Notes under the pieces: model-generated
Seen by the model: only the letters and a program-made list of their open reading frames with translations
What the model was told of the DNA's origin: nothing
Database searches by the model: none
Made by a program: the position numbers and the translations under genes
Assembly (NCBI RefSeq): GCF_017876815.1
Contig: NZ_JAGIOS010000002.1
Span: 240,001 to 272,000 of the forward strand
Source: Sinorhizobium meliloti
GTDB taxonomy: Bacteria; Pseudomonadota; Alphaproteobacteria; Rhizobiales; Rhizobiaceae
Length of the DNA: 32,000 nt
Reading direction: 5' to 3'
Shown: one piece after another, positions 1 through 8,531 of the stretch
Layout of the letters: each line of letters opens with the position of its first letter
Position numbering within the stretch: the stretch's first letter is position 1

Positions 1-11
1 TCTCAGAACTG

Positions 12-821
12 TTGGCGGATCTGACGCCACCCGCCACATCCGCCTGGTGGACCCAGCACCGCGGCGATACACCCGTCGTCGCGACCGCCATTCACGACGG
101 CCATGCCACTCGCGCCGCGGTGCGGCGCATGTTCGCGATTTCCGAAGAAGAACGCCTGCGGGAGGAGGACCCCTTCACCGAGTTCCTGATCCGCGACTTC
201 GCCAACCGGATCATCGTCCATCGCTCGCGGTTCGAAGTCGACGTCAACCGTCCCCGCGGCGGCGCAGTCTACCTGCGGCCGGAACAGGCCTGGGGTCTCC
301 AAGTATGGGCGGAAGAACCGCCGCAGGCCGTCGTCGATGCATCCCTTTCCGTGCACGACGAGTATTATGAGATGCTGGCATCGTTCCTTGCCGGTATCGA
401 ACGCTGCCACGGATGCTTCGTCGTCCTCGACGTTCACAGCTACAATCATCGCCGTGCCGGGCCTGAAGCGGAGCCGACGCTTTCGACCGACGCGCCGGAC
501 ATCAACATCGGCACCATCTCGATGGAACGCAGAAAATGGGCGCATGTGGTCGACAGCTTCATGGCGGCGCTTCGCTCCTTCGATTTTCCAGGCGGACCAC
601 TGGACGTGCGCGAAAACATCGCCTTCCAGGGGCGGGGCGAGCAGACGCGCTTCATCCATGAGCATTTCCCCGACACGGGCTGCGCCATTGCCGTCGAATT
701 CAAGAAAGTCTTCATGGAGGAATGGACGGGCGAGCCGCGCCCCGAGGTGCTCGTAGCGCTCAGAAGATTGCTCGCCTCGACCCTGCCGGCACTTATCGAC
801 GCTTTGGGGCGAGGTCGATGA
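12..821 (+). CDS. N-formylglutamate amidohydrolase (FGase/HutG-like) family amidohydrolase. The 5' end is uncertain: the listed start is TTG and the frame stays open to base 3, so the gene may begin upstream of the window.
   Basis: 269-aa ORF with FGase-type motifs as I recall them: AIHDGH near the N-terminus and VLDVHSY mid-protein. Its stop overlaps the next start (ATGA at 818-821). The long antisense ORF 3..890 is Arg/Gly-rich with no recognisable motif. Confidence 0.8.
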   Translation: MADLTPPATSAWWTQHRGDTPVVATAIHDGHATRAAVRRMFAISEEERLREEDPFTEFLIRDFANRIIVHRSRFEVDVNRPRGGAVYLRPEQAWGLQVWAEEPPQAVVDASLSVHDEYYEMLASFLAGIERCHGCFVVLDVHSYNHRRAGPEAEPTLSTDAPDINIGTISMERRKWAHVVDSFMAALRSFDFPGGPLDVRENIAFQGRGEQTRFIHEHFPDTGCAIAVEFKKVFMEEWTGEPRPEVLVALRRLLASTLPALIDALGRGR

Positions 822-2704
822 AGCTTGCGCGCGCACCCATCCAACTCGAGGCCGATCCACCCGACTGGCTTGCGGATGCGTTGGCCGCAATCGAGGCAGG
901 CAGAGCTGTCCGCAAGGAGTTCGAAGGCGGCGGACGCCTCCACATTGACCGGGCCCTGCCCTTTCTCTGCGTGCATTTTACCCGCAGCGACGAGGCACCT
1001 GTTGCGCGCGAAGTGGTCCGCGCGAACGCCTCTCACCTGCTCGCACCAGGCGCTGCCACGGCGAAACCTATCGTCGCCGCCGTCGGAAAACTGCTCGAGC
1101 GTCGATTCGGCGCCTTCATGGTGCTCGAAATGGACGAACTCGCCCAGGATGAGCTCCTGACCGACAATGCTCCTTTGCTGCCGCCCTTCAAGGTCGAAGT
1201 GATGGCCGGCGCCGAGGGAAATATCCGAGCCGCAGCAATGGCATTCGTCGACGCCGTCGAAGCGATCCCCGCGAAGTTCCGAACGCCGCGGGTCGAGCTC
1301 CATGAATGGCCGCAGGAATCCACACTAGAGGGAGAGACGCTCGATCTGCCATTCCCTTCAATGCGGGTTCGTTTCGCACCCGTCTACCGGCAGCACAATT
1401 CCGGCCGGATCTTCCCGGAAGTGCGCGAGCGGCTGATCGCGAGCATCTTCGATGCCACCCTGCACGCCTTCGCTGCCTTCGCGCGATCGACGCGCAGCCT
1501 CGAATTCCCGACCCATCGCGCGCTCGGCAGAAAGGCATTCATCGATGCCGTGGAGCGCACCGACCGCAGCATCGACGACGTCGCCTCCAGCTTCGATTTT
1601 CTTCTCGCCGTTACGCCGATAAATGCGGAAGCCGCCTGGAGCGAATTCGCGGCAAGCGATTTCGCGCGCGCGCCGCGTTTCCTCTATCGGCCTTTGATCA
1701 TCGAGATCGAAGCCGCAAAGAAGACGCTGTTCTCGATCCCCTTCGATCACCTCGAAGACCCGGTGCTCTACCAACTCTACCGTGAAAAGCAGCAGGAAGT
1801 CGATCTGCAGCTGACGATGCTCTCCGCCCGTGAAACGAGGAAGTTCATCGAGTTCGGCCGTGCACTGTACGGTCCCGTCGAGCCGAACCTCCTCAGCGCA
1901 GCCGAAGAGATCCTCGCCCGCAGCCAGAAGGTCGCCGCGGACCCGCAAGCACCCGCCGAACGCCGTGCCGACAGCCATTTCGTCGAAATGCGGGCGGGCG
2001 AGATGATCGCCGCATATGCCCAGCGCTACGAGGGCTTCGAAGCGCTCGTGGAGGTGCGGGACGATCTTCCCGCCGGGTTGCTGGTTTCGGGAAGGCGGCT
2101 CCTGATCGCGCGCAGCACGATCATGGAGTCCGATCGCGTCGGTCCGATCCTCAGCCACGAAATCGGCGTTCACCTTCTGACCTACTTCAATGGATCGGCG
2201 CAGGGGCTTCGCCTGTTTCGCTCCGGTCTTGCCGGGTATGAAGGAATGCAGGAGGGCCTTGCGGTATTCGCGGAATATCTTTCGGGGGGAATGACGAGCG
2301 AGCGGCTGCGTCTCCTCGCCGCCCGCGTGCTCGCCTGCGCCGCGATGATCGATGGCGCGTCCTTGCCGGAGGTCTACCACCTGCTCGTCCACGAACACGG
2401 ATTCCAGAGGGCGGACGCCTTCAATGTTGTTCTGCGCGTTTATCGCGGCGGCGGTCTCGTCAAGGACGCGATCTACCTGCGGGGACTTCTGCAGCTGCTC
2501 GATCATCTCGCAGCAGGGGGCGCGCTCGAGCCCTTCTGGATGGGCAAGATAGCCGCCTCCCATTTTGCCGTCATGCAGGAACTGCATGCCCGCGGCCTGC
2601 TCGGCGGCCCTTCGGTTCGACCCATGTTTCTGGATGGTCCGGAAGCGCCGTCGCGGCTTGCCAGGGCGCGCGAGCGGATGGCTCCACTCGATATGCTGCG
2701 GTAA
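818..2704 (+). CDS. DUF1704 / QEGLA-motif putative metallocarboxypeptidase (the family annotated 'flavohemoglobin expression-modulating QEGLA motif protein', MATCAP-like), with a roughly 255-aa N-terminal region I cannot assign
   Basis: The in-frame ATG at 818 gives a 4-nt ATGA overlap with the upstream stop; the ORF-track start at 722 would overlap by 100 nt. HEIGVH (HExxxH) lies at nt 2156-2173 and MQEGLA at nt 2246-2263. The DUF1704-like stretch FDFLLAVTPINAE...FLYRPL starts near nt 1592. Confidence 0.85.
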   Translation: MKLARAPIQLEADPPDWLADALAAIEAGRAVRKEFEGGGRLHIDRALPFLCVHFTRSDEAPVAREVVRANASHLLAPGAATAKPIVAAVGKLLERRFGAFMVLEMDELAQDELLTDNAPLLPPFKVEVMAGAEGNIRAAAMAFVDAVEAIPAKFRTPRVELHEWPQESTLEGETLDLPFPSMRVRFAPVYRQHNSGRIFPEVRERLIASIFDATLHAFAAFARSTRSLEFPTHRALGRKAFIDAVERTDRSIDDVASSFDFLLAVTPINAEAAWSEFAASDFARAPRFLYRPLIIEIEAAKKTLFSIPFDHLEDPVLYQLYREKQQEVDLQLTMLSARETRKFIEFGRALYGPVEPNLLSAAEEILARSQKVAADPQAPAERRADSHFVEMRAGEMIAAYAQRYEGFEALVEVRDDLPAGLLVSGRRLLIARSTIMESDRVGPILSHEIGVHLLTYFNGSAQGLRLFRSGLAGYEGMQEGLAVFAEYLSGGMTSERLRLLAARVLACAAMIDGASLPEVYHLLVHEHGFQRADAFNVVLRVYRGGGLVKDAIYLRGLLQLLDHLAAGGALEPFWMGKIAASHFAVMQELHARGLLGGPSVRPMFLDGPEAPSRLARARERMAPLDMLR

Positions 2705-2718
2705 TAGGAGCGGCCCAC

Positions 2719-3765
2719 ATGCGCATCGCTTTTTTCGTCAACTCCGTCGAAGGCGAAGCCCCCTATTATACGACGACATGGCTGGCGCTCGCGGCGCTCG
2801 CACGCGGTCACGAGGTCTGCTACGTCACGCCGGGGGATTTCGTGCTGCGCCCTGACGACAGTCTGCTGATCCGCGCAACGACCCTGAAAGGTACGAAGCC
2901 GAAGAAGCCGGAGACGCTGCTCACAGCGCTCAAGGGCGAGCAGGCAAAGATCAGCACGCTCGACCTGCATGAGGTACAGGTGCTCTTTCTGCGGAACGAC
3001 CCTTCCGAAGACGCGGACACGCGGCCATGGGCAGTCTATGTCGGCACGAATTTCGGGCGACTCGCCGCCGCACGCGGCGTTCTGGTGGTAAACGACCCGG
3101 ACGGTTTGTCGCTCGCGCAGAACAAGCTCTATTTTCAGGAATTTCCCGAGATCATCCGGCCAACCAGCCTGATCTCGAGAAGCATCGAGGAAATCCGCAG
3201 CTTCATCGAGGATCATCCGGGCGGGGCTATCCTGAAGCCCTTGCAAGGCTCCGGCGGCAAGAACGTCTTCAAGATCAACTCCAAGGACGAGGCCAATCTC
3301 AACCAGATCTTCGAGGTCGCCAGCGGCGGCGGCTACCTGATCGCGCAGAACTACATTCCCGACGCGGTCGCCGGCGATATTCGTCTGTTCCTGTTGAACG
3401 GCAGACCGCTCGAGCGCGACGGCGTCTACGCCGCCTTCCGGCGCGTTCCTGCCGAGGGCGACGTACGCTCGAACATGCATGTGAGCGGCACGCCCGAAGC
3501 CGCGACCGTTACGCCTGAGATCCTAGAGATCGCGGAACGGCTCCGTCCCAAGCTCATCGAAGACGGCATGTTCCTGGTCGGGCTCGATATAGTCGGTGAC
3601 AAGGTGCTGGAAGCCAACGTCTTCACGCCGGGCGGTCTTCCAGAGATTGCAGCGCTCCACGGTGTGGACTTCAGCGAAGACATCATGATCGCGCTGGAAA
3701 ACAAAGTGCGAATCCAGGAGCTCTACCGCGGGGCCATTCCGAACCGCACATTGGCGGTCCTTTGA
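2719..3765 (+). CDS. Glutathione-synthetase-like (GshB/RimK-type) ATP-grasp ligase
   Basis: 348 aa. Preceded by AGGAG in the 14-nt gap after the previous stop. Colinear by eye with recalled E. coli GshB: ILKPLQGSGGKNVF vs ILKPLDGMGGASIF, AQNYIPDAVAGDIRLFLLNG vs AQNYLPAIKDGDKRVLVVDG, FLVGLDIVGDKVLEANVFTP vs FVGLDIIGDRLTEINVTSP. Confidence 0.85.
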   Translation: MRIAFFVNSVEGEAPYYTTTWLALAALARGHEVCYVTPGDFVLRPDDSLLIRATTLKGTKPKKPETLLTALKGEQAKISTLDLHEVQVLFLRNDPSEDADTRPWAVYVGTNFGRLAAARGVLVVNDPDGLSLAQNKLYFQEFPEIIRPTSLISRSIEEIRSFIEDHPGGAILKPLQGSGGKNVFKINSKDEANLNQIFEVASGGGYLIAQNYIPDAVAGDIRLFLLNGRPLERDGVYAAFRRVPAEGDVRSNMHVSGTPEAATVTPEILEIAERLRPKLIEDGMFLVGLDIVGDKVLEANVFTPGGLPEIAALHGVDFSEDIMIALENKVRIQELYRGAIPNRTLAVL

Positions 3766-3835
3766 GGAGGTGCCTTCGGGATCTCGCGCACCGCACGATC
3801 TGTGGGCTAGTCTAATCCACCGGCCCGTCACGCCG

Positions 3836-3921
3836 TCAACAAAAGTGAGTTTACAAAAGTAATATAGTATGATTTTTTCTCGTCAGCTGCATGGAAGAGC
3901 AGCTTTCTTTGGGAGGAAATC
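3836..3921 (+). promoter_or_regulatory. AT-rich promoter/operator region upstream of the ytfQ-like operon, with a direct 8-mer repeat ACAAAAGT (3839-3846 and 3853-3860)
   Basis: A visibly AT-rich island in a GC-rich window. It holds two identical 8-mers 14 bp apart and a -10-like TAATAT at 3860-3865. The SD GGGAGG lies just before the ATG at 3922. Promoter hexamers are guesses only. Confidence 0.35.
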
Positions 3922-4884
3922 ATGAAAATCGTGAAGGCACTTGCGAGTGCAACGATCCTTGCTGCCTGCACTTTCGGCAGCGCTTCGGCCGCCGAACTCG
4001 TCGTCGGCTTTTCTCAGATCGGATCGGAGTCCGGCTGGCGTGCAGCTGAAACGACGCTGACGAAGCAGCAGGCGGAAGAGCGCGGCATCGACCTAAAATT
4101 CGCCGACGCGCAGCAGAAGCAGGAAAACCAGATCAAGGCGATCCGCTCTTTCATCGCGCAGGGGGTGAATGCCATCCTTCTCGCTCCGGTCGTCGCGACC
4201 GGCTGGGATGAAGTTCTCGAGGAGGCCAAGGACGCGGAGATCCCGGTCATCCTGCTCGATCGCACCGTCGACGCCTCCGACGATCTCTATCTGACGGCGG
4301 TCACCTCCGATCTCGTCCACGAAGGCAGCGTGGCCGGCAAATGGCTTGTCGATACCGTTGCGGGCAAGCCGTGCAACGTCGTCGAACTTCAGGGCACCAC
4401 CGGCTCCTCGCCGGCGATCGACCGCAAGAAGGGATTCGAGCAGGCGCTCTCCGGCAACGACAATCTGAAGATCGTCCGCAGCCAGACCGGCGACTTCACC
4501 CGGACGAAGGGCAAGGAAGTGATGGAAAGCTTCCTGAAAGCCGAGGACGGCGGCAAGAACATCTGTGCGCTCTACGCTCATAACGACGACATGGCGGTGG
4601 GCGCGATTCAGGCGATCAAGGAAGCCGGTCTGAAGCCGGGCAAGGACATCCTCGTCGTCTCGATCGACGCTGTTCCGGATATCTTCCAGGCGATGGCTGC
4701 CGGCGAAGCCAATGCGACGGTCGAGCTCACGCCGAACATGGCGGGCCCCGCCTTCGATGCGCTTGCTGCCTTCCTGAAGGACGGCAAAGAGCCGCCGAAA
4801 TGGATCCAGACGGAATCGAAGCTCTACACGCAGGCCGACGACCCGATGAAGGTCTACGAAGAAAAGAAGGGCCTTGGCTACTGA
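3922..4884 (+). CDS. ytfQ: Galactofuranose-type ABC transporter periplasmic binding protein (YtfQ homolog)
   Basis: 320 aa with a signal peptide (…ACTFGSASA|AE). Long identical blocks to recalled E. coli YtfQ: VGFSQ(I/V)GSESGWRAAET, QQKQENQIKA(I/V)RSF, GKPCNVVELQGT, GDFTR(T/S)KGKEVMESF, GEANA(T/S)VELTPNMAGPAFDAL. Confidence 0.93.
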   Translation: MKIVKALASATILAACTFGSASAAELVVGFSQIGSESGWRAAETTLTKQQAEERGIDLKFADAQQKQENQIKAIRSFIAQGVNAILLAPVVATGWDEVLEEAKDAEIPVILLDRTVDASDDLYLTAVTSDLVHEGSVAGKWLVDTVAGKPCNVVELQGTTGSSPAIDRKKGFEQALSGNDNLKIVRSQTGDFTRTKGKEVMESFLKAEDGGKNICALYAHNDDMAVGAIQAIKEAGLKPGKDILVVSIDAVPDIFQAMAAGEANATVELTPNMAGPAFDALAAFLKDGKEPPKWIQTESKLYTQADDPMKVYEEKKGLGY

Positions 4885-4897
4885 TCCCGCTCAGCGC

Positions 4898-4931
4898 TCG
4901 GCCCGAAGATCGGCACCGATTTTCGGGCCGA
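4898..4931 (+). other. Long intercistronic stem-loop (about 13-15 bp stem, one G-U pair, 4-nt loop) just after the ytfQ stop
   Basis: tcGGCCCGAAGATCG gcac CGATTTTCGGGCCga. Arms paired by hand: 4900-4912 with 4917-4929, extendable to 4898/4931. No downstream U-tract. Confidence 0.55.
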
Positions 4932-4948
4932 TGCGCAGTGCGCCAGAA

Positions 4949-4968
4949 CCCGCGGCAGCCGCCGCGGG
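4949..4968 (+). other. Second intercistronic GC stem-loop (8-bp stem, 4-nt loop)
   Basis: CCCGCGGC agcc GCCGCGGG. A third weaker hairpin (CGCCCG…CGGGCG) follows near 4987-5008. Confidence 0.5.
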
Positions 4969-5026
4969 CCATTCCATCGAACGGACGCCCGCTCGTTCGT
5001 CGGGCGGCAATCCAGAGACGGCAGCC

Positions 5027-6544
5027 ATGCAGACCAGCAGTGACAATATCCTTTCGGCCACAAGGATCGAAAAGGGCTTTCCCGGCACGAAGGCGCTAGA
5101 CAGGGTAGATTTTCACCTGCGGCGCGGCGAGGTTCACGCGCTCCTCGGGGAGAATGGCGCCGGCAAATCGACGCTTATCAAATGCCTGACGGGCGCCTAT
5201 CGCCGGGATGGCGGCAGCATGCTGCTCGACGGAGCCGAGGCCGACCCGCGCGACACGTTCGATGCCCAGAGGCTGGGCATCGGGACCGTTTACCAGGAGG
5301 TCAACCTGCTGCCGAACCTCACCGTTGCCGAGAACCTCTTTCTCGGACGGCAGCCCCGCCGCTTCGGCATGGTGGACACGCGCACCATGAATCGCAAGGC
5401 GCGGGAATTGCTCGCGGAATACGAACTCGATATCGACGTCACCCGTGATCTCGCGAGCTACTCCGTGGCGATTCAGCAGGTCGTGGCCATCGCCCGGGCC
5501 GTGGATCTTTCCGGCAAGGTCCTGATTCTGGACGAGCCGACCGCAAGCCTCGACGCGCACGAGGTGGAGATGCTCTTCCGCATCGTACGCCGCCTCAAGG
5601 AACGCGGGCTCGGCATCATCTTCATCACCCACTTCCTGGAACAGGTCTACGCCATCTCCGATCGCATCACCGTTCTGCGGAACGGGCAGTTGGTCGGCAC
5701 GCGCAACGCGGCCGATCTCGACCGGCGCGAGCTGATCGCAATGATGATCGGTCGGGAACTGGCGACAGAGATCCATTCCGCCCATTCCGACGCGGTCGCG
5801 GGTGAGCCACGCTACAGTTTCCGAAACTTTGGCCGCCGCGGAAAGATCGACCCCTTCGATCTCGATGTCCGCGCCGGCGAGGTCGTCGGCATGGCAGGCC
5901 TGCTCGGCTCAGGGCGGACGGAAACCGCCGAAATCCTCTTCGGCGCCCATCGCGCCGATAGCGGTACGGCCGAGATCGATGGCCGGACCGTCGATCTTTC
6001 CTCGCCGCGTGCCGCAATCCGGCAGAAGTTCGGCTTCTGCCCCGAGGACCGCAAGACCGCCGGCATCGTCGGCGACCTGTCCGTGCGCGAGAATATCGTG
6101 CTCGCCCTTCAGGCAAGGCGCGGCTGGACCCGCCCGATTCCGCGCGCGGAGCAGAACCGGCTCGCGGACCACTACATCCGGGCACTCGATATCCGCACGG
6201 CGGATCGCGAGAAACCGATCAGGCTGCTTTCCGGCGGCAATCAGCAAAAGGCCATCCTGGCGCGCTGGCTCGCGACCGAACCGGAACTGCTCATCCTCGA
6301 CGAGCCGACGCGCGGCATCGACGTCGGGGCGCATGCGGAAATCATCAGGCTCATCGAGAGCCTGCGCGAGAAGGGCATGTCGCTCATCGTCATCTCCTCG
6401 GAAATAGAAGAACTCGCCGCCTACAGCACGCGGGTCGTCGTCCTTCGCGACCACGCCCACGTTGCCGAACTCGATGGCGCTCAATTGACTGCCCATCGGA
6501 TCGTCGAAGCGATCGCTGCGACCAACGGGAGGGAAGCGTCTTGA
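5027..6544 (+). CDS. ytfR: Duplicated-cassette sugar ABC transporter ATP-binding protein (YtfR homolog)
   Basis: ATG at 5027 (MQTSSDNILSATRIEKGF…) gives 505 aa, the usual CUT2 ATPase size. Walker A is GENGAGKST. Signature/Walker B are LSGGNQQKAILARW…LILDEPTRGID in the second cassette and ILDEPTASLD in the first. The ORF-track start at 4874 only adds an Ala/Pro/Arg-rich extension across the hairpin region. Confidence 0.9.
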   Translation: MQTSSDNILSATRIEKGFPGTKALDRVDFHLRRGEVHALLGENGAGKSTLIKCLTGAYRRDGGSMLLDGAEADPRDTFDAQRLGIGTVYQEVNLLPNLTVAENLFLGRQPRRFGMVDTRTMNRKARELLAEYELDIDVTRDLASYSVAIQQVVAIARAVDLSGKVLILDEPTASLDAHEVEMLFRIVRRLKERGLGIIFITHFLEQVYAISDRITVLRNGQLVGTRNAADLDRRELIAMMIGRELATEIHSAHSDAVAGEPRYSFRNFGRRGKIDPFDLDVRAGEVVGMAGLLGSGRTETAEILFGAHRADSGTAEIDGRTVDLSSPRAAIRQKFGFCPEDRKTAGIVGDLSVRENIVLALQARRGWTRPIPRAEQNRLADHYIRALDIRTADREKPIRLLSGGNQQKAILARWLATEPELLILDEPTRGIDVGAHAEIIRLIESLREKGMSLIVISSEIEELAAYSTRVVVLRDHAHVAELDGAQLTAHRIVEAIAATNGREAS

Positions 6545-7566
6545 TTCCGATCATGCGGACCTATGCCGGCCGCCTGCTGCCGCAGCTCATCGCATTAGCG
6601 GCAATTGTCATAGCGATTTCAATCGTCTTTCCCGGTTTTCTAAACCTGCAGATCCAGAATGGTCGTCTGTATGGAAGTATGATCGACATCCTCAACCGCG
6701 GCGCGCCCGTCGTTCTTCTGGCGATCGGAATGACCGTCGTCATCGCTACCAAGGGGATCGATCTTTCGGTCGGCGCGGTTATGGCGATCTGCGGCGCAGT
6801 TGCCGCCTCGCTGATCACGTCGGGGCATTCGCTTGCCGAGACCCTCCTCGCCACGCTCGCGGTCGGCATTATCTGCGGCATCTGGAACGGGGTTCTGGTC
6901 GCCGTCCTCGACATCCAACCGATCATCGCGACTCTCGTGCTGATGGTGGCGGGGCGCGGCATAGCCCAGCTCATCACCGAGGGAACCATTCTAACTTTCA
7001 ATGATCCCGGCCTGATCTTCATCGGCAGCGGTTCCTTTGCCGGCCTGCCCATGCCGATCGTGATCTGGCTGGTTTTCGGCCTGCTCGTCGCCCTTCTCGT
7101 TCGGCGGACGGCGCTCGGCATGCTGATCGAGGCGATCGGCATCAACCGGCAGGCAAGCACGCTCTCGGGCGTGCTCACCCCCGTCCTGCTCGTGGCCGCT
7201 TACGTGCTCTCGGGTCTCTGCGCCGCGATTGCCGGCATCATCGCCGCCGCCGACATCCGGGGCGCCGATGCCAACAATGCTGGTCTCTGGCTGGAACTCG
7301 ACGCCATTCTGGCGGTGGTCGTCGGCGGCACATCCCTGCTCGGCGGCCGCTTCAGCATTGCGGCGTCGGTGCTGGGCGCCGTCATCATCCAGGCGATCAA
7401 TACCGGCATTCTCCTGTCCGGCTTCCCGCCCGAGTTCAACCTCATCATCAAAGCGGCGATCATCATCTTCATCCTGGTGCTCCAGTCACCGCGCTTCCGC
7501 ACGGGGGTCTCGTTTCTGAGTATCCCGAAGGCAGCCGGCAAGCCGACCGAGCGAGAAGCGAAATGA
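6541..7566 (+). CDS. ytfT: Sugar ABC transporter permease (YtfT homolog)
   Basis: Multi-TM ORF. Blocks match recalled E. coli YtfT: DILNR(G/A)APV(V/A)LLAIGMT(V/L)VIAT(K/G)GIDLSVGAVMAI, ADIRGADANNAGLWLELDAILAVV, NTGILLSGFPPE. TTG at 6541 overlaps the ytfR stop (TTGA) with GGGAGGGAAG upstream. ATG at 6553 is an alternative start. Confidence 0.9.
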   Translation: MIPIMRTYAGRLLPQLIALAAIVIAISIVFPGFLNLQIQNGRLYGSMIDILNRGAPVVLLAIGMTVVIATKGIDLSVGAVMAICGAVAASLITSGHSLAETLLATLAVGIICGIWNGVLVAVLDIQPIIATLVLMVAGRGIAQLITEGTILTFNDPGLIFIGSGSFAGLPMPIVIWLVFGLLVALLVRRTALGMLIEAIGINRQASTLSGVLTPVLLVAAYVLSGLCAAIAGIIAAADIRGADANNAGLWLELDAILAVVVGGTSLLGGRFSIAASVLGAVIIQAINTGILLSGFPPEFNLIIKAAIIIFILVLQSPRFRTGVSFLSIPKAAGKPTEREAK

Positions 7567-8531
7567 AGCAGAAATATCTTCCACTTACGGCGACGATCTT
7601 GATCTTTGTCTTAAGTTCCGCGCTCTGCGTCGCGCAGTATCCGAACATGCTCTCGACCCGCGTGATCGGAAACCTTCTGACCGACAATGCCTTCCTCGGC
7701 ATCGCCGCCGTCGGCATGACCTTCGTCATCCTCTCGGGCGGCATCGATCTGTCGATCGGCGCTGTGATCGCATTTGCCGGTGTGTTTCTGGCCGTCGTAC
7801 TCGAGCATGGCGGCATGCATCCGCTCGTCGCCTTCGCGTTGCTGCTGGCCATCACGACGCTGTTCGGAGCGCTGATGGGGGCGATCATCCACTATCTCGA
7901 AATGCCGGCTTTCATCGTTACGCTCGCCGGCATGTTCCTCGCCCGCGGCATGGCCTTCGTACTGTCGATCGACTCCATTCCGATCAAGCACCCCTTCTAC
8001 GCGACCTTGAAGAGCCTCTATTTCAAGTTGCCCGGCGGCGGCCGCATCACCCTCATAGGCGGCCTGATGCTGTTCGTCTTCGCGGTCGGCATTCTCATCG
8101 CCCACCGGACCCGCTTCGGCACGAATATCTATGCGCTCGGCGGCGGCACGGCGACGGCAAAGCTCATGGGCGTTCCGGTTGCCGCCACCACGATCCGGAT
8201 CTACGCGCTGTCCGGGCTGCTCGCCGGCCTGTCGGGCATCGTCTTCTCGCTCTATACCTCCGCCGGATACTCGCTGGCCGCCGTCGGCGTCGAGCTGGAC
8301 GCCATCACCGCCGTCGTCATCGGCGGGACACTGCTTACCGGCGGATCCGGCTTCGTTGCCGGAACGTTGGTCGGCATCCTCATCCAGGGTCTCATCCAGA
8401 CATACATCACGTTCGACGGCACACTTTCGAGCTGGTGGACGAAGATCCTGATCGGTCTCCTGCTCTTTGCCTTCATCCTGTTGCAGAAGGGGATCATCCA
8501 CCTGTCGCGCCCCGAACGGCAGCGGGCGTAG
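7563..8531 (+). CDS. yjfF: Sugar ABC transporter permease (YjfF homolog)
   Basis: 322-aa multi-TM ORF with an ATGA overlap with the previous gene at 7563-7566. It shows the typical CUT2 permease block GGIDLSIGAVIAF. It is the fourth gene of the ytfQRT-yjfF order. Confidence 0.88.
   Translation: MKQKYLPLTATILIFVLSSALCVAQYPNMLSTRVIGNLLTDNAFLGIAAVGMTFVILSGGIDLSIGAVIAFAGVFLAVVLEHGGMHPLVAFALLLAITTLFGALMGAIIHYLEMPAFIVTLAGMFLARGMAFVLSIDSIPIKHPFYATLKSLYFKLPGGGRITLIGGLMLFVFAVGILIAHRTRFGTNIYALGGGTATAKLMGVPVAATTIRIYALSGLLAGLSGIVFSLYTSAGYSLAAVGVELDAITAVVIGGTLLTGGSGFVAGTLVGILIQGLIQTYITFDGTLSSWWTKILIGLLLFAFILLQKGIIHLSRPERQRA

Follow-up and report, generated by a model that had tools for sequence, protein, structure and literature searches.

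The first 3765 nucleotides (nt) of a 32,000-nt stretch of Sinorhizobium meliloti DNA (contig NZ_JAGIOS010000002.1, positions 240,001 to 272,000; this whole stretch is referred to below as the window) hold three genes on one strand, encoding an FGase-family hydrolase (gene 1), a relative of the human tubulin-tail peptidase MATCAP (gene 2) and a GshB-like ATP-grasp ligase (gene 3). The conservation of these genes as a trio in distant phyla supports the view that they work as one functional unit. What would be the use of a unit in which one enzyme appears equipped to form amide bonds and the other two to break them? Judging from the chemistry of the respective families, the chances are about even that it is a cytoplasmic system, complete in itself, for forming and cleaving amide bonds in a single small, peptide-like substrate. 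Over its first 3.9 kb, the window is 100% identical to NC_017326.1, a 1.63-Mb replicon of S. meliloti SM11, and ~99% identical to pSymB of other strains; the replicon is a pSymB-type megaplasmid, on which the trio is called SMb21584, SMb21585 and SMb21586 in the nomenclature of strain 2011/1021. In public annotation the three genes carry three unrelated names that are in part misleading.

Conservation, order and fusions of the three genes

Relatives of gene 2 were scanned for in one genome per species, which yielded 80 loci, and the presence of the partner genes was counted in the 69 loci with at least 1.5 kb of sequence on both sides. Approximately 33 of the 80 loci come from Rhizobiaceae and Phyllobacteriaceae; the others belong to Planctomycetota, Acidobacteriota, Chloroflexota, Gemmatimonadota, Campylobacterota, Myxococcota, Acidimicrobiales (Actinomycetota), Ignavibacteria and Rhodothermales (Bacteroidota-related groups), Sumerlaeota and unclassified Proteobacteria. 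All three genes are present in 65 of the 69 loci, spanning at least 10 phyla, and they follow each other on one strand in the order gene 1, gene 2, gene 3 in 67 of 70 loci. From gene 2 to gene 3, stop codons are a median of 1056 nt apart for a ligase gene that is itself 1047 nt long, meaning that the two genes abut or overlap, and the stop-to-stop spacing between genes 1 and 2 is tight in 67 related loci. The association also holds when approached from the opposite end, i.e. from the ligase on metagenome contigs: of the 66 loci that extend far enough, 62 have gene 2 directly upstream of the ligase, and 30 of 33 have gene 1 as well as gene 2. An earlier, sequence-only reading of the window had taken the three genes for one unit and had proposed to look for conservation of the triad; this conservation proved to be reciprocal across at least 10 phyla and, together with the abutting or overlapping genes and the existence of natural fusions, it upholds the proposed unit.

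One such fusion comes from a metagenome-assembled genome of the Polyangiales (L070 6008-7888, JBFGKE010000024.1), where a 627-amino-acid (aa) open reading frame (ORF) that may owe its existence to a sequencing or assembly error joins an FGase domain (aa 17-226) to a GshB-like ligase (aa 281-603), with the MATCAP-like gene placed directly 3' of it; another, uniting the FGase and MATCAP-like domains in Photobacterium, is described below. Tandem expansions occur in Gemmatimonadota and Planctomycetota, where four loci (L039, L044, L052 and L060) contain two to three GshB-like ligase paralogues, and two of them (L052 and L060) contain two MATCAP-like genes as well. One distinct ligase clade is always found directly after the first MATCAP-like gene of these tandem loci.

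Does a gene for the substrate travel with the trio? Clustering of neighbouring ORFs revealed no fourth conserved gene of at least 70 aa beside it, the top clusters being spurious high-GC frames, and no conserved small precursor ORF of 18-90 aa flanking it, the sole cluster of this size being the ligase's own tail. This agrees with the earlier remark that no substrate gene is visible. The same reading had recommended inspecting the sequence upstream of base 1 for a small substrate ORF, and a 70-aa hypothetical ORF (MELTNARKLATEYL...INRA) indeed lies beyond the window edge, 40 nt before the ATG of gene 1 (L001 8712-8924). It was nevertheless rejected as a substrate candidate: it has no Pfam match, and similar ORFs were seen in only a few Sinorhizobium/Ensifer loci, so that the search led to nothing beyond an ORF confined to Sinorhizobium.

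Also set aside was P0005, a 982-aa protein of some S. meliloti assemblies that is annotated as a fusion of genes 2 and 3. Its MATCAP match ends at profile position 224 of 365, and the protein most likely results from a frameshift in gene 2 with translation continuing into gene 3; owing to it, the clustering at 90% put the two unrelated proteins together. Ligases without the other two genes also occur. Two orphans from metagenomes (L092 5001-6041 and L108 3985-5022) share 65-67% identity with gene 3, and neither an FGase nor a MATCAP gene lies within 5 kb of them; a third locus (L093) likewise is without genes 1 and 2; L092 and L108 have a DUF763 gene downstream on the opposite strand, and their other neighbours, a flavin monooxygenase and an ABC (ATP-binding cassette) protein, are uninformative.

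Features of the locus and of the three proteins

The features of the trio and its immediate 3' side, in window coordinates, are the following:

1..821, + strand: gene 1 (SMb21584 type), FGase-family metal amidohydrolase as judged by sequence; its 5' end lies beyond the window edge, the full gene encoding 285 aa
818..821, + strand: ATGA stop/start overlap of genes 1 and 2 (gene 1 stop TGA 819-821, gene 2 start ATG 818-820), suggestive of translational coupling
818..2704, + strand: gene 2 (SMb21585 type), 628 aa, degenerate FGase-like N-domain followed by a MATCAP/QEGLA gluzincin domain; stop TAA 2702-2704
869..1510, + strand: N-terminal domain of gene 2, ~aa 18-231, alpha/beta, homologue of gene 1 (hhalign, Foldseek, Photobacterium alignment)
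1643..2674, + strand: MATCAP-family catalytic domain of gene 2, aa 276-619 (PF08014, Foldseek, family profile)
2156..2173, + strand: HEIGVH, the HExxxH zinc-binding/catalytic motif (His447, Glu448, His452), from the alignment
2246..2263, + strand: MQEGLA, with the presumed third metal ligand Glu479 (QEG corresponding to EEG of MATCAP)
2706..2710, + strand: AGGAG ribosome-binding site, 8 nt 5' of the gene 3 ATG, within the 14-nt gap 2705-2718
2719..3765, + strand: gene 3 (SMb21586, Q92UR6), 348 aa, GshB/RimK-type ATP-grasp ligase of the PRK12458 subfamily (NF009110)
3703..3762, + strand: extra C-terminal segment of gene 3 (~aa 329-348) with no counterpart in E. coli GshB (alignment)
3885..3910, + strand: weak terminator-like hairpin and T-rich tail within the spacer of 156 nt 3' of gene 3 (pattern scan only)

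The overlap, the AGGAG-containing gap before the ATG at 2719 and the positions of both gene 2 motifs had all been described in the sequence-only reading, and the sequence confirms them. Only the start of gene 1, which had been set at base 12, has to be moved: the reading frame continues past the window edge to an annotated ATG 37 nt 5' of base 1. The hairpin is a possible end of the trio unit, and a promoter scan found nothing. Searches with profile hidden Markov models, also recommended earlier, matched each of the three proteins far beyond chance.

Gene 3 matches PF02955 and PF02951 and, over its full length, NF009110 (PRK12458), where it scores 501 bits against a cutoff of 408; we know of no experimental basis for the name 'glutathione synthetase' that this model bears. 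Both GshB equivalogs remain out of reach (NF003573, 212.9 bits vs a cutoff of 272; TIGR01380, 205.9 vs 299.05), as do the RimK models (TIGR00768, 75.1 vs 143.4; the RimK equivalog NF007764, 31 vs 331). The alignment with E. coli GshB (1gsa) is colinear over residues 23-331, with E 1e-34 and 30% identity, which places the resemblance over the ATP-grasp core, originally noticed by eye, on firm ground; RimK structures are the next matches in the PDB. The catalytic residues of gene 3 (K136, K173, the G177-G180 loop, D220, R222, R242, R250, N252, D290, E298 and N300) are the equivalents of E. coli GshB Lys125, Lys160, the Gly-rich loop, Asp208, Arg210, Arg225, Arg233, Asn235, Asp273, Glu281 and Asn283, and they are invariant in the alignment of the gene 3 family. 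Their functional roles we take to be those given in the literature on 1gsa. These invariant residues mark gene 3 as a predicted active ATP-grasp ligase; they do not, by themselves, show its specificity.

In several respects, gene 3 departs from E. coli GshB. Where the N-terminal substrate region of the E. coli enzyme reads KKDSS, gene 3 shows a conserved E13 and, around T19, the stretch TTT (TE..GYTTT), and the protein as a whole has three insertions and a C-terminal extension of ~20 residues. With a mean column identity of 66% in an alignment that takes in Alphaproteobacteria, Planctomycetota, Chloroflexota and others, the ligase is the best conserved of the three proteins, and its conservation reaches the very tail: the final residue is Leu in 76 of 80 homologues and the ending is -ATL in 53 of 80 (-AVL in the window), unlike the C-termini of genes 1 and 2, which are variable.

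That gene 2 belongs to the MATCAP/DUF1704 family, as had been suggested from its motifs, is borne out by score, motifs and fold alike. Pfam PF08014 (MATCAP), with a cutoff of 27, gives 327.9 bits (E 1e-97) and is aligned over positions 2-362 of its 365, and TIGR02421 (QEGLA), whose match spans only aa 249-615 and thus not the N-domain, scores 355.1 bits against 338.65. Upon structure prediction, likewise proposed beforehand, the AlphaFold2 model (pLDDT, the predicted local distance difference score, 77) had human MATCAP (7z5g/7z6s) as its top five Foldseek matches in the PDB, with E 3e-7 to 6e-7 and template modelling (TM) scores, normalised on the target, of 0.64-0.68. A PDB sequence search with gene 2 alone gave no match, the solved structures having been reached by the fold search and by a profile of 35 gene 2 homologues (down to 30% identity), which matches the MATCAP chain 7z5g at E 3e-10. 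In this profile alignment, HE[VI]GTH corresponds to HEIGTH of human MATCAP, QEGLA to EEGLA, RxxRG to RAKRG and KDAIYLRG to KDQVYLDG. H447, E448, H452, Q478 and E479 are invariant in 35/35 diverse homologues, as are RxxRG and KDxxY, and G480 is kept in 34/35.

The recognition of MATCAP as a tubulin-tail peptidase of a new class dates only from 2022. The bacterial motifs can be read against the human enzymes, where the metal site is formed by HExxxH and the glutamate of EEG, the latter serving as the third ligand, and all biochemically defined members of the family trim protein tails (PMC10499314). Gene 2 is thus a true MATCAP/DUF1704 member with an HExxxH plus QEG metal site. Furthermore, the RxxRG and KDxxY motifs that it has in common with MATCAP are compatible with the activity of a metallocarboxypeptidase removing C-terminal residues.

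The catalytic domain accounts, however, for only a part of the protein, and the earlier description of gene 2 as a single DUF1704 protein therefore stands for its C-terminal portion but not for its first ~250 residues, which form a separate, decayed FGase-like domain. This region has no Pfam match. When 1.84 billion cluster representatives were searched, the majority of the 150 best gene 2 matches were 600-680 aa long and aligned over nearly the whole query, and the two-domain architecture persists to ~31% identity in 150 or more clusters (clustering at 50% identity). By hhalign, aa 51-213 of gene 2 align with aa 101-273 of gene 1 (probability 88%, E 3e-6), and the Foldseek matches of the N-region comprise the Amidase_3 protein AmiP, the FGase 2q7s, aspartoacylase and aminoacylase-3.

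An intact counterpart of this domain is found in Photobacterium sp. GJ3 (NZ_CP073579.1), where the ligase gene is followed by a gene for a 665-aa FGase-MATCAP fusion (L164 5317-7314) and where the locus has no separate FGase gene. The FGase domain of the fusion is recognised by Pfam (60 bits, residues 39-237) and keeps the signature motifs of gene 1, i.e. HxG, EEDP, SRxExDxNR, DxHSYNH and ExKK. The S. meliloti-type N-domain, when aligned with it and examined by column counts, has lost the first segment and is without HxG, EEDP and DxHSYNH, and is probably non-catalytic. It is the intact Photobacterium fusion, together with the profile alignment to gene 1, that leads us to read gene 2 as a decayed FGase-like domain joined to MATCAP, with the intact FGase-like enzyme of this lineage apparently supplied by gene 1. 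The Photobacterium ligase scores 480 bits with NF009110 and just passes one GshB equivalog (285 vs 272), and it ends in -AATS without the conserved tail. Since the tail is missing precisely where the FGase-MATCAP fusion is intact, the ligase tail may go with the decayed N-domain of gene 2.

The complete gene 1 ORF, 285 aa long, was taken from a 99.7% identical record (L001 8964-9821). Its membership of the FGase family, as first proposed from the His motifs, rests on PF05013 (86.4 bits vs a gathering score of 28.9, E 4e-24) and on conserved motifs: in 28 homologues from many phyla, with a mean column identity of 47%, H44-x-G, R66-E-E-D69, S88-R-F-x-x-D93-x-N95-R96, D156-x-H158-S-Y160 and E245-x-K-K248 are invariant. 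The HutG equivalog TIGR02017, on the other hand, yields 22.4 bits vs a cutoff of 278.75, so far below it that gene 1 is an FGase-fold enzyme but not the deformylase of the histidine pathway; no hut genes were found among the annotated neighbours of the trio. The AlphaFold2 model (pLDDT 79.5, predicted TM score 0.83) has FGase structures as its best Foldseek matches (2q7s and 2odf, TM 0.6-0.7; 2q7s with TM 0.70-0.72 and E 5e-10), followed lower down by bacterial M14 CCP-like carboxypeptidases, poly-gamma-glutamate hydrolase and CCP5. PDB sequence searches with gene 1 and with its family profile gave no match. Taken together, the data make gene 1 appear to be an active metal amidohydrolase belonging to a subfamily of its own.

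Substrate and function of the module

How could the three enzymes operate together? The ligase encoded by gene 3 would convert a carboxylate to an acyl-phosphate and then add an amino acid, the product being an N-acyl-dipeptide or a short oligopeptide, much as glutathione synthetase adds Gly to gamma-Glu-Cys and N-acetylaspartylglutamate (NAAG) synthetase adds Glu to N-acetyl-Asp. Gene 2, by means of its MATCAP-like zinc carboxypeptidase domain, would take the C-terminal residue off again, whereupon the FGase-like amidohydrolase of gene 1 would split the remaining N-acyl-amino-acid bond. The decayed N-domain of gene 2 may be what is left of an ancestral FGase-MATCAP fusion and would now probably serve as a binding or assembly module. 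As a net result, the cell would dispose of a rapidly adjustable pool of a small amide-linked compound. We infer from the family chemistry that all three enzymes act on the same molecule and in this order of steps, and likewise that this molecule is small and what its physiological role might be. Why a small molecule? The lack of a conserved fourth gene or small ORF beside the trio leans in this direction, as do the tandem ligase and MATCAP paralogues of Planctomycetota and Gemmatimonadota, which are to be expected for stepwise assembly. The substrates of characterised FGase and GshB relatives are small N-acyl amino acids and peptides.

A hint as to when such a module might be needed comes from the genus with the intact fusion. 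In Photobacterium damselae, comparison by RNA-seq of growth at 1% and 3% NaCl revealed that, at the lower salinity, a 342-aa 'glutathione synthase' (A0J47_RS17020) is up 38-fold, the 660-aa QEGLA gene RS17025, which overlaps the ligase gene by 17 nt, is up 27.5-fold, and RimK is up 52-fold (PMC10308900). The layout of HdfR, DUF413, ligase and QEGLA genes, with the HdfR/DUF413 pair divergent, is common to P. damselae and Photobacterium sp. GJ3; the domains were verified in GJ3, P. damselae being matched by annotation, gene lengths and synteny only. With this proviso, co-expression of the ligase and the FGase-MATCAP fusion, and their link to low salinity, are shown for a remote two-gene form of the module; the data say nothing of S. 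meliloti itself.

Several observations sit uneasily with a small-molecule system. A ligase and hydrolases working on one bond would create a futile cycle unless they were regulated, and no regulation is evident from the sequence. The defined MATCAP-family enzymes act on protein tails and not on small molecules (PMC10499314), and a scheme confined to small molecules leaves the ligase tail, whose conservation extends to the final residue, without a role. The evidence on salinity, finally, stems from the distant two-gene version, whose ligase is without this tail and for which P. damselae was matched as just described.

Could the module, then, be directed at proteins? Under this alternative, which we hold to be unlikely but the most serious of the competitors, the ligase would attach one or more residues to the C-terminus of a protein encoded elsewhere, or to its own -ATL tail, and the MATCAP-like carboxypeptidase, aided by the FGase-fold enzyme, would remove the added residues, in the manner of tubulin tyrosination/glutamylation or of RimK/RimB. 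Gene 2 is, after all, a true member of a family whose known members trim protein tails, RimK is the second-closest family to gene 3, whose RSN-x-H-x-GG loop presumably resembles the RimK loop, and the fold of gene 1 is also like that of bacterial M14 CCP-like carboxypeptidases and of the tubulin deglutamylase CCP5. A near-invariant final Leu is typical of a recognised terminus, and a substrate encoded elsewhere would explain why no conserved partner gene accompanies the trio. Yet gene 3 is much nearer to GshB (213 bits) than to RimK (75 bits), characterised FGase-family enzymes use small N-acyl amino acids, and the tandem ligase paralogues better fit the stepwise assembly of a small peptide. 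Moreover, Photobacterium keeps the module without the conserved tail, and no candidate target protein was identified.

Carried to its end, this line of thought would turn the trio into a bacterial 'C-terminal code', with an ATP-grasp writer and two carboxypeptidase-fold erasers acting at protein C-termini, a prokaryotic ancestor of the TTL/MATCAP/CCP tubulin-tail machinery in which the -ATL tail is either the substrate or a handle read by the decayed FGase-like domain; we regard this as speculative and somewhat less probable still.

Equally improbable, in our estimation, is a salvage or breakdown route, in which the two hydrolases would dismantle an N-acylated or peptide compound and the ligase would re-use one of the fragments in a different product. 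Candidate compounds include an N-acetyl-dipeptide osmolyte of the NAGGN (N-acetylglutaminylglutamine amide) type after osmotic downshift, oligo- or poly-glutamate and cell-wall peptides. The induction of a related module at low salinity, when compatible solutes and glutamate must go, is in line with this proposal, and so is the pairing of a carboxypeptidase with an N-acyl-amino-acid deacylase, which would suit the stepwise breakdown of an N-acyl-dipeptide; in addition, the fold neighbours of the FGase-like proteins include N-acetylmuramoyl-L-alanine amidases, aspartoacylase, aminoacylase-3 and poly-gamma-glutamate hydrolase. On the other hand, neighbour ORF clustering uncovered no conserved gene for a transporter, for NAGGN synthesis or for cell-wall recycling beside the trio. 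An ATP-consuming ligase would be odd in a catabolic operon, and it is nonetheless the best conserved of the three proteins, while the FGase-ligase fusion suggests a common substrate and not separate pathways.

Taken at face value, the public annotation of gene 3, 'glutathione synthase', would make it a second glutathione (or homoglutathione-type) synthetase, with genes 1 and 2 handling gamma-glutamyl peptides of glutathione turnover. This we consider very improbable, even though the colinear alignment at 30% identity, the conserved catalytic residues, including the loop equivalent to that of Arg233, and the Photobacterium homologue that lies just over one equivalog cutoff are all in its favour. 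The S. meliloti protein falls below both equivalog cutoffs, and its N-terminal substrate region, three insertions and extra tail set it apart; the ligase is also tied to genes 1 and 2 in phyla that are, to our knowledge, not generally known for glutathione. There is a genetic argument as well. The sequence-only reading had asked whether a canonical gshB exists elsewhere in the genome, since gene 3 as the sole glutathione synthetase would have spoken against its proposal, and there is indeed one on the chromosome, SMc00419. Disruption of this gene in S. meliloti 2011 resulted in a strain without glutathione (GSH) by high-performance liquid chromatography (PMC7063052), and the counterparts of the trio, SM2011_b21584-86, are present in this strain background. 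Because the SMc00419 mutant makes no GSH despite the presence of SMb21586, and because both equivalog cutoffs are missed, the glutathione of the cell does not originate from gene 3; it is accounted for by the chromosomal gshB.

Least of all do we expect gene 2 to be a regulator of flavohemoglobin expression with incidental neighbours: the phenotypic origin that the earlier reading gave for the flavohemoglobin label, which NCBIfam also carries, fits a paper in which PA3697 is cited as a regulator of fhp in Pseudomonas aeruginosa, but the metallopeptidase site of gene 2 is intact and no DNA-binding domain is present, the neighbours are reciprocally conserved across phyla, there is no hmp/fhp gene near this locus, and the phenotype is more likely an indirect effect.

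Related systems and the flanks of the trio

To return to the small-molecule system that we favour, its three-step logic is the same as that of the mammalian NAAG cycle, which comprises the ATP-grasp NAAG synthetases RIMKLA and RIMKLB, glutamate carboxypeptidase II and aspartoacylase: an N-acyl amino acid is extended by an amino acid through the ligase, shortened again by a zinc carboxypeptidase and finally split by a zinc deacylase of the FGase/aspartoacylase-like fold class. Aspartoacylase and aminoacylase-3 are, as mentioned, among the Foldseek neighbours of the FGase-like domain. The likeness is nevertheless one of functional analogy only, because no component other than the ATP-grasp ligase is orthologous, glutamate carboxypeptidase II being an M28 enzyme and not a MATCAP gluzincin. 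A precedent for physical coupling of the kind seen in the Polyangiales FGase-ligase ORF is glutathionylspermidine synthetase/amidase, a bifunctional ligase plus hydrolase working on one amide bond, although its amidase is an unrelated CHAP domain and its substrates are different.

The tubulin cycle of TTL/TTLL ligases, MATCAP (KIAA0895L/TMCP1, TMCP2) and M14 CCP enzymes pairs an ATP-grasp ligase with metallocarboxypeptidases just as the trio does, gene 2 being homologous to MATCAP in profile, motifs and fold and gene 1 having a distantly CCP-like fold. It differs in that its ligase is TTL-type whereas that of the trio is GshB/RimK-type, in that bacteria have no tubulin tail, and in that the bacterial module is gathered in one putative operon and has in gene 2 an extra FGase-like domain that MATCAP lacks. 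RimK/RimB, too, combines a bacterial ATP-grasp ligase, here of a sister family, with a peptidase encoded beside it, the tail-trimming protease RimB, and RimK, the glutamate ligase of ribosomal protein S6, is induced at low salt in P. damselae together with the related module; gene 3 is, however, far below the RimK cutoff (75 vs 143 bits), the peptidase folds are other ones, and S6 modification is not indicated for the trio.

GshB (E. coli 1gsa; SMc00419) remains the closest characterised homologue of gene 3, having the same two Pfam domains, but gene 3 differs from it by its link to two hydrolases, by the conserved 20-residue tail and by being dispensable for GSH in S. meliloti. In a similar vein, gene 1 belongs to the Pfam family and has the fold of HutG, but it forms a separate subfamily, strongly conserved and found in company with the ligase and MATCAP-like genes.

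Modules made of a ligase and a peptidase are of a known kind, and the trio adds to it a variant that is both distinct and widespread. Iyer et al. (2009), who reportedly surveyed ATP-grasp/peptidase neighbourhoods, may have noted this association of genes before. In the literature that could be searched, no paper on the module, on the extra domain of gene 2 or on the ligase tail came up; a Klebsiella ATP-grasp paper (CfmP) proved to be unrelated.

What is the significance of a bacterial MATCAP homologue that is bound up, in at least 10 phyla, with an ATP-grasp ligase and an FGase-like hydrolase? It offers a concrete, assayable three-enzyme system for bacterial MATCAP relatives that have so far been named after an indirect phenotype, and it points to a likely evolutionary source of eukaryotic MATCAP. 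It also corrects a widespread annotation, for thousands of 'glutathione synthase' genes are probably mislabelled. And if the induction at low salinity holds beyond Photobacterium, the module could be an unrecognised part of the handling of amino-acid or osmolyte pools.

As for the rest of the window, an Rfam scan of it found no RNA family, and the PADLOC models of anti-phage defence systems gave no match to the three trio proteins at E 1e-3. A YtfQ/YjfF-type sugar ABC transporter and a FadR-family regulator follow directly downstream of the trio (3922-8531), and the genes further downstream, for sugar transport, regulators and catabolism, are ordinary pSymB content with no evident link to it. 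Some S. meliloti strains carry a 1050-bp insertion at 3810/3811, between the trio and the downstream ABC transporter (RU11/001 pSymB, L165 4011-5060); its two overlapping ORFs resemble, by eye from their translation, an IS630-family transposase.

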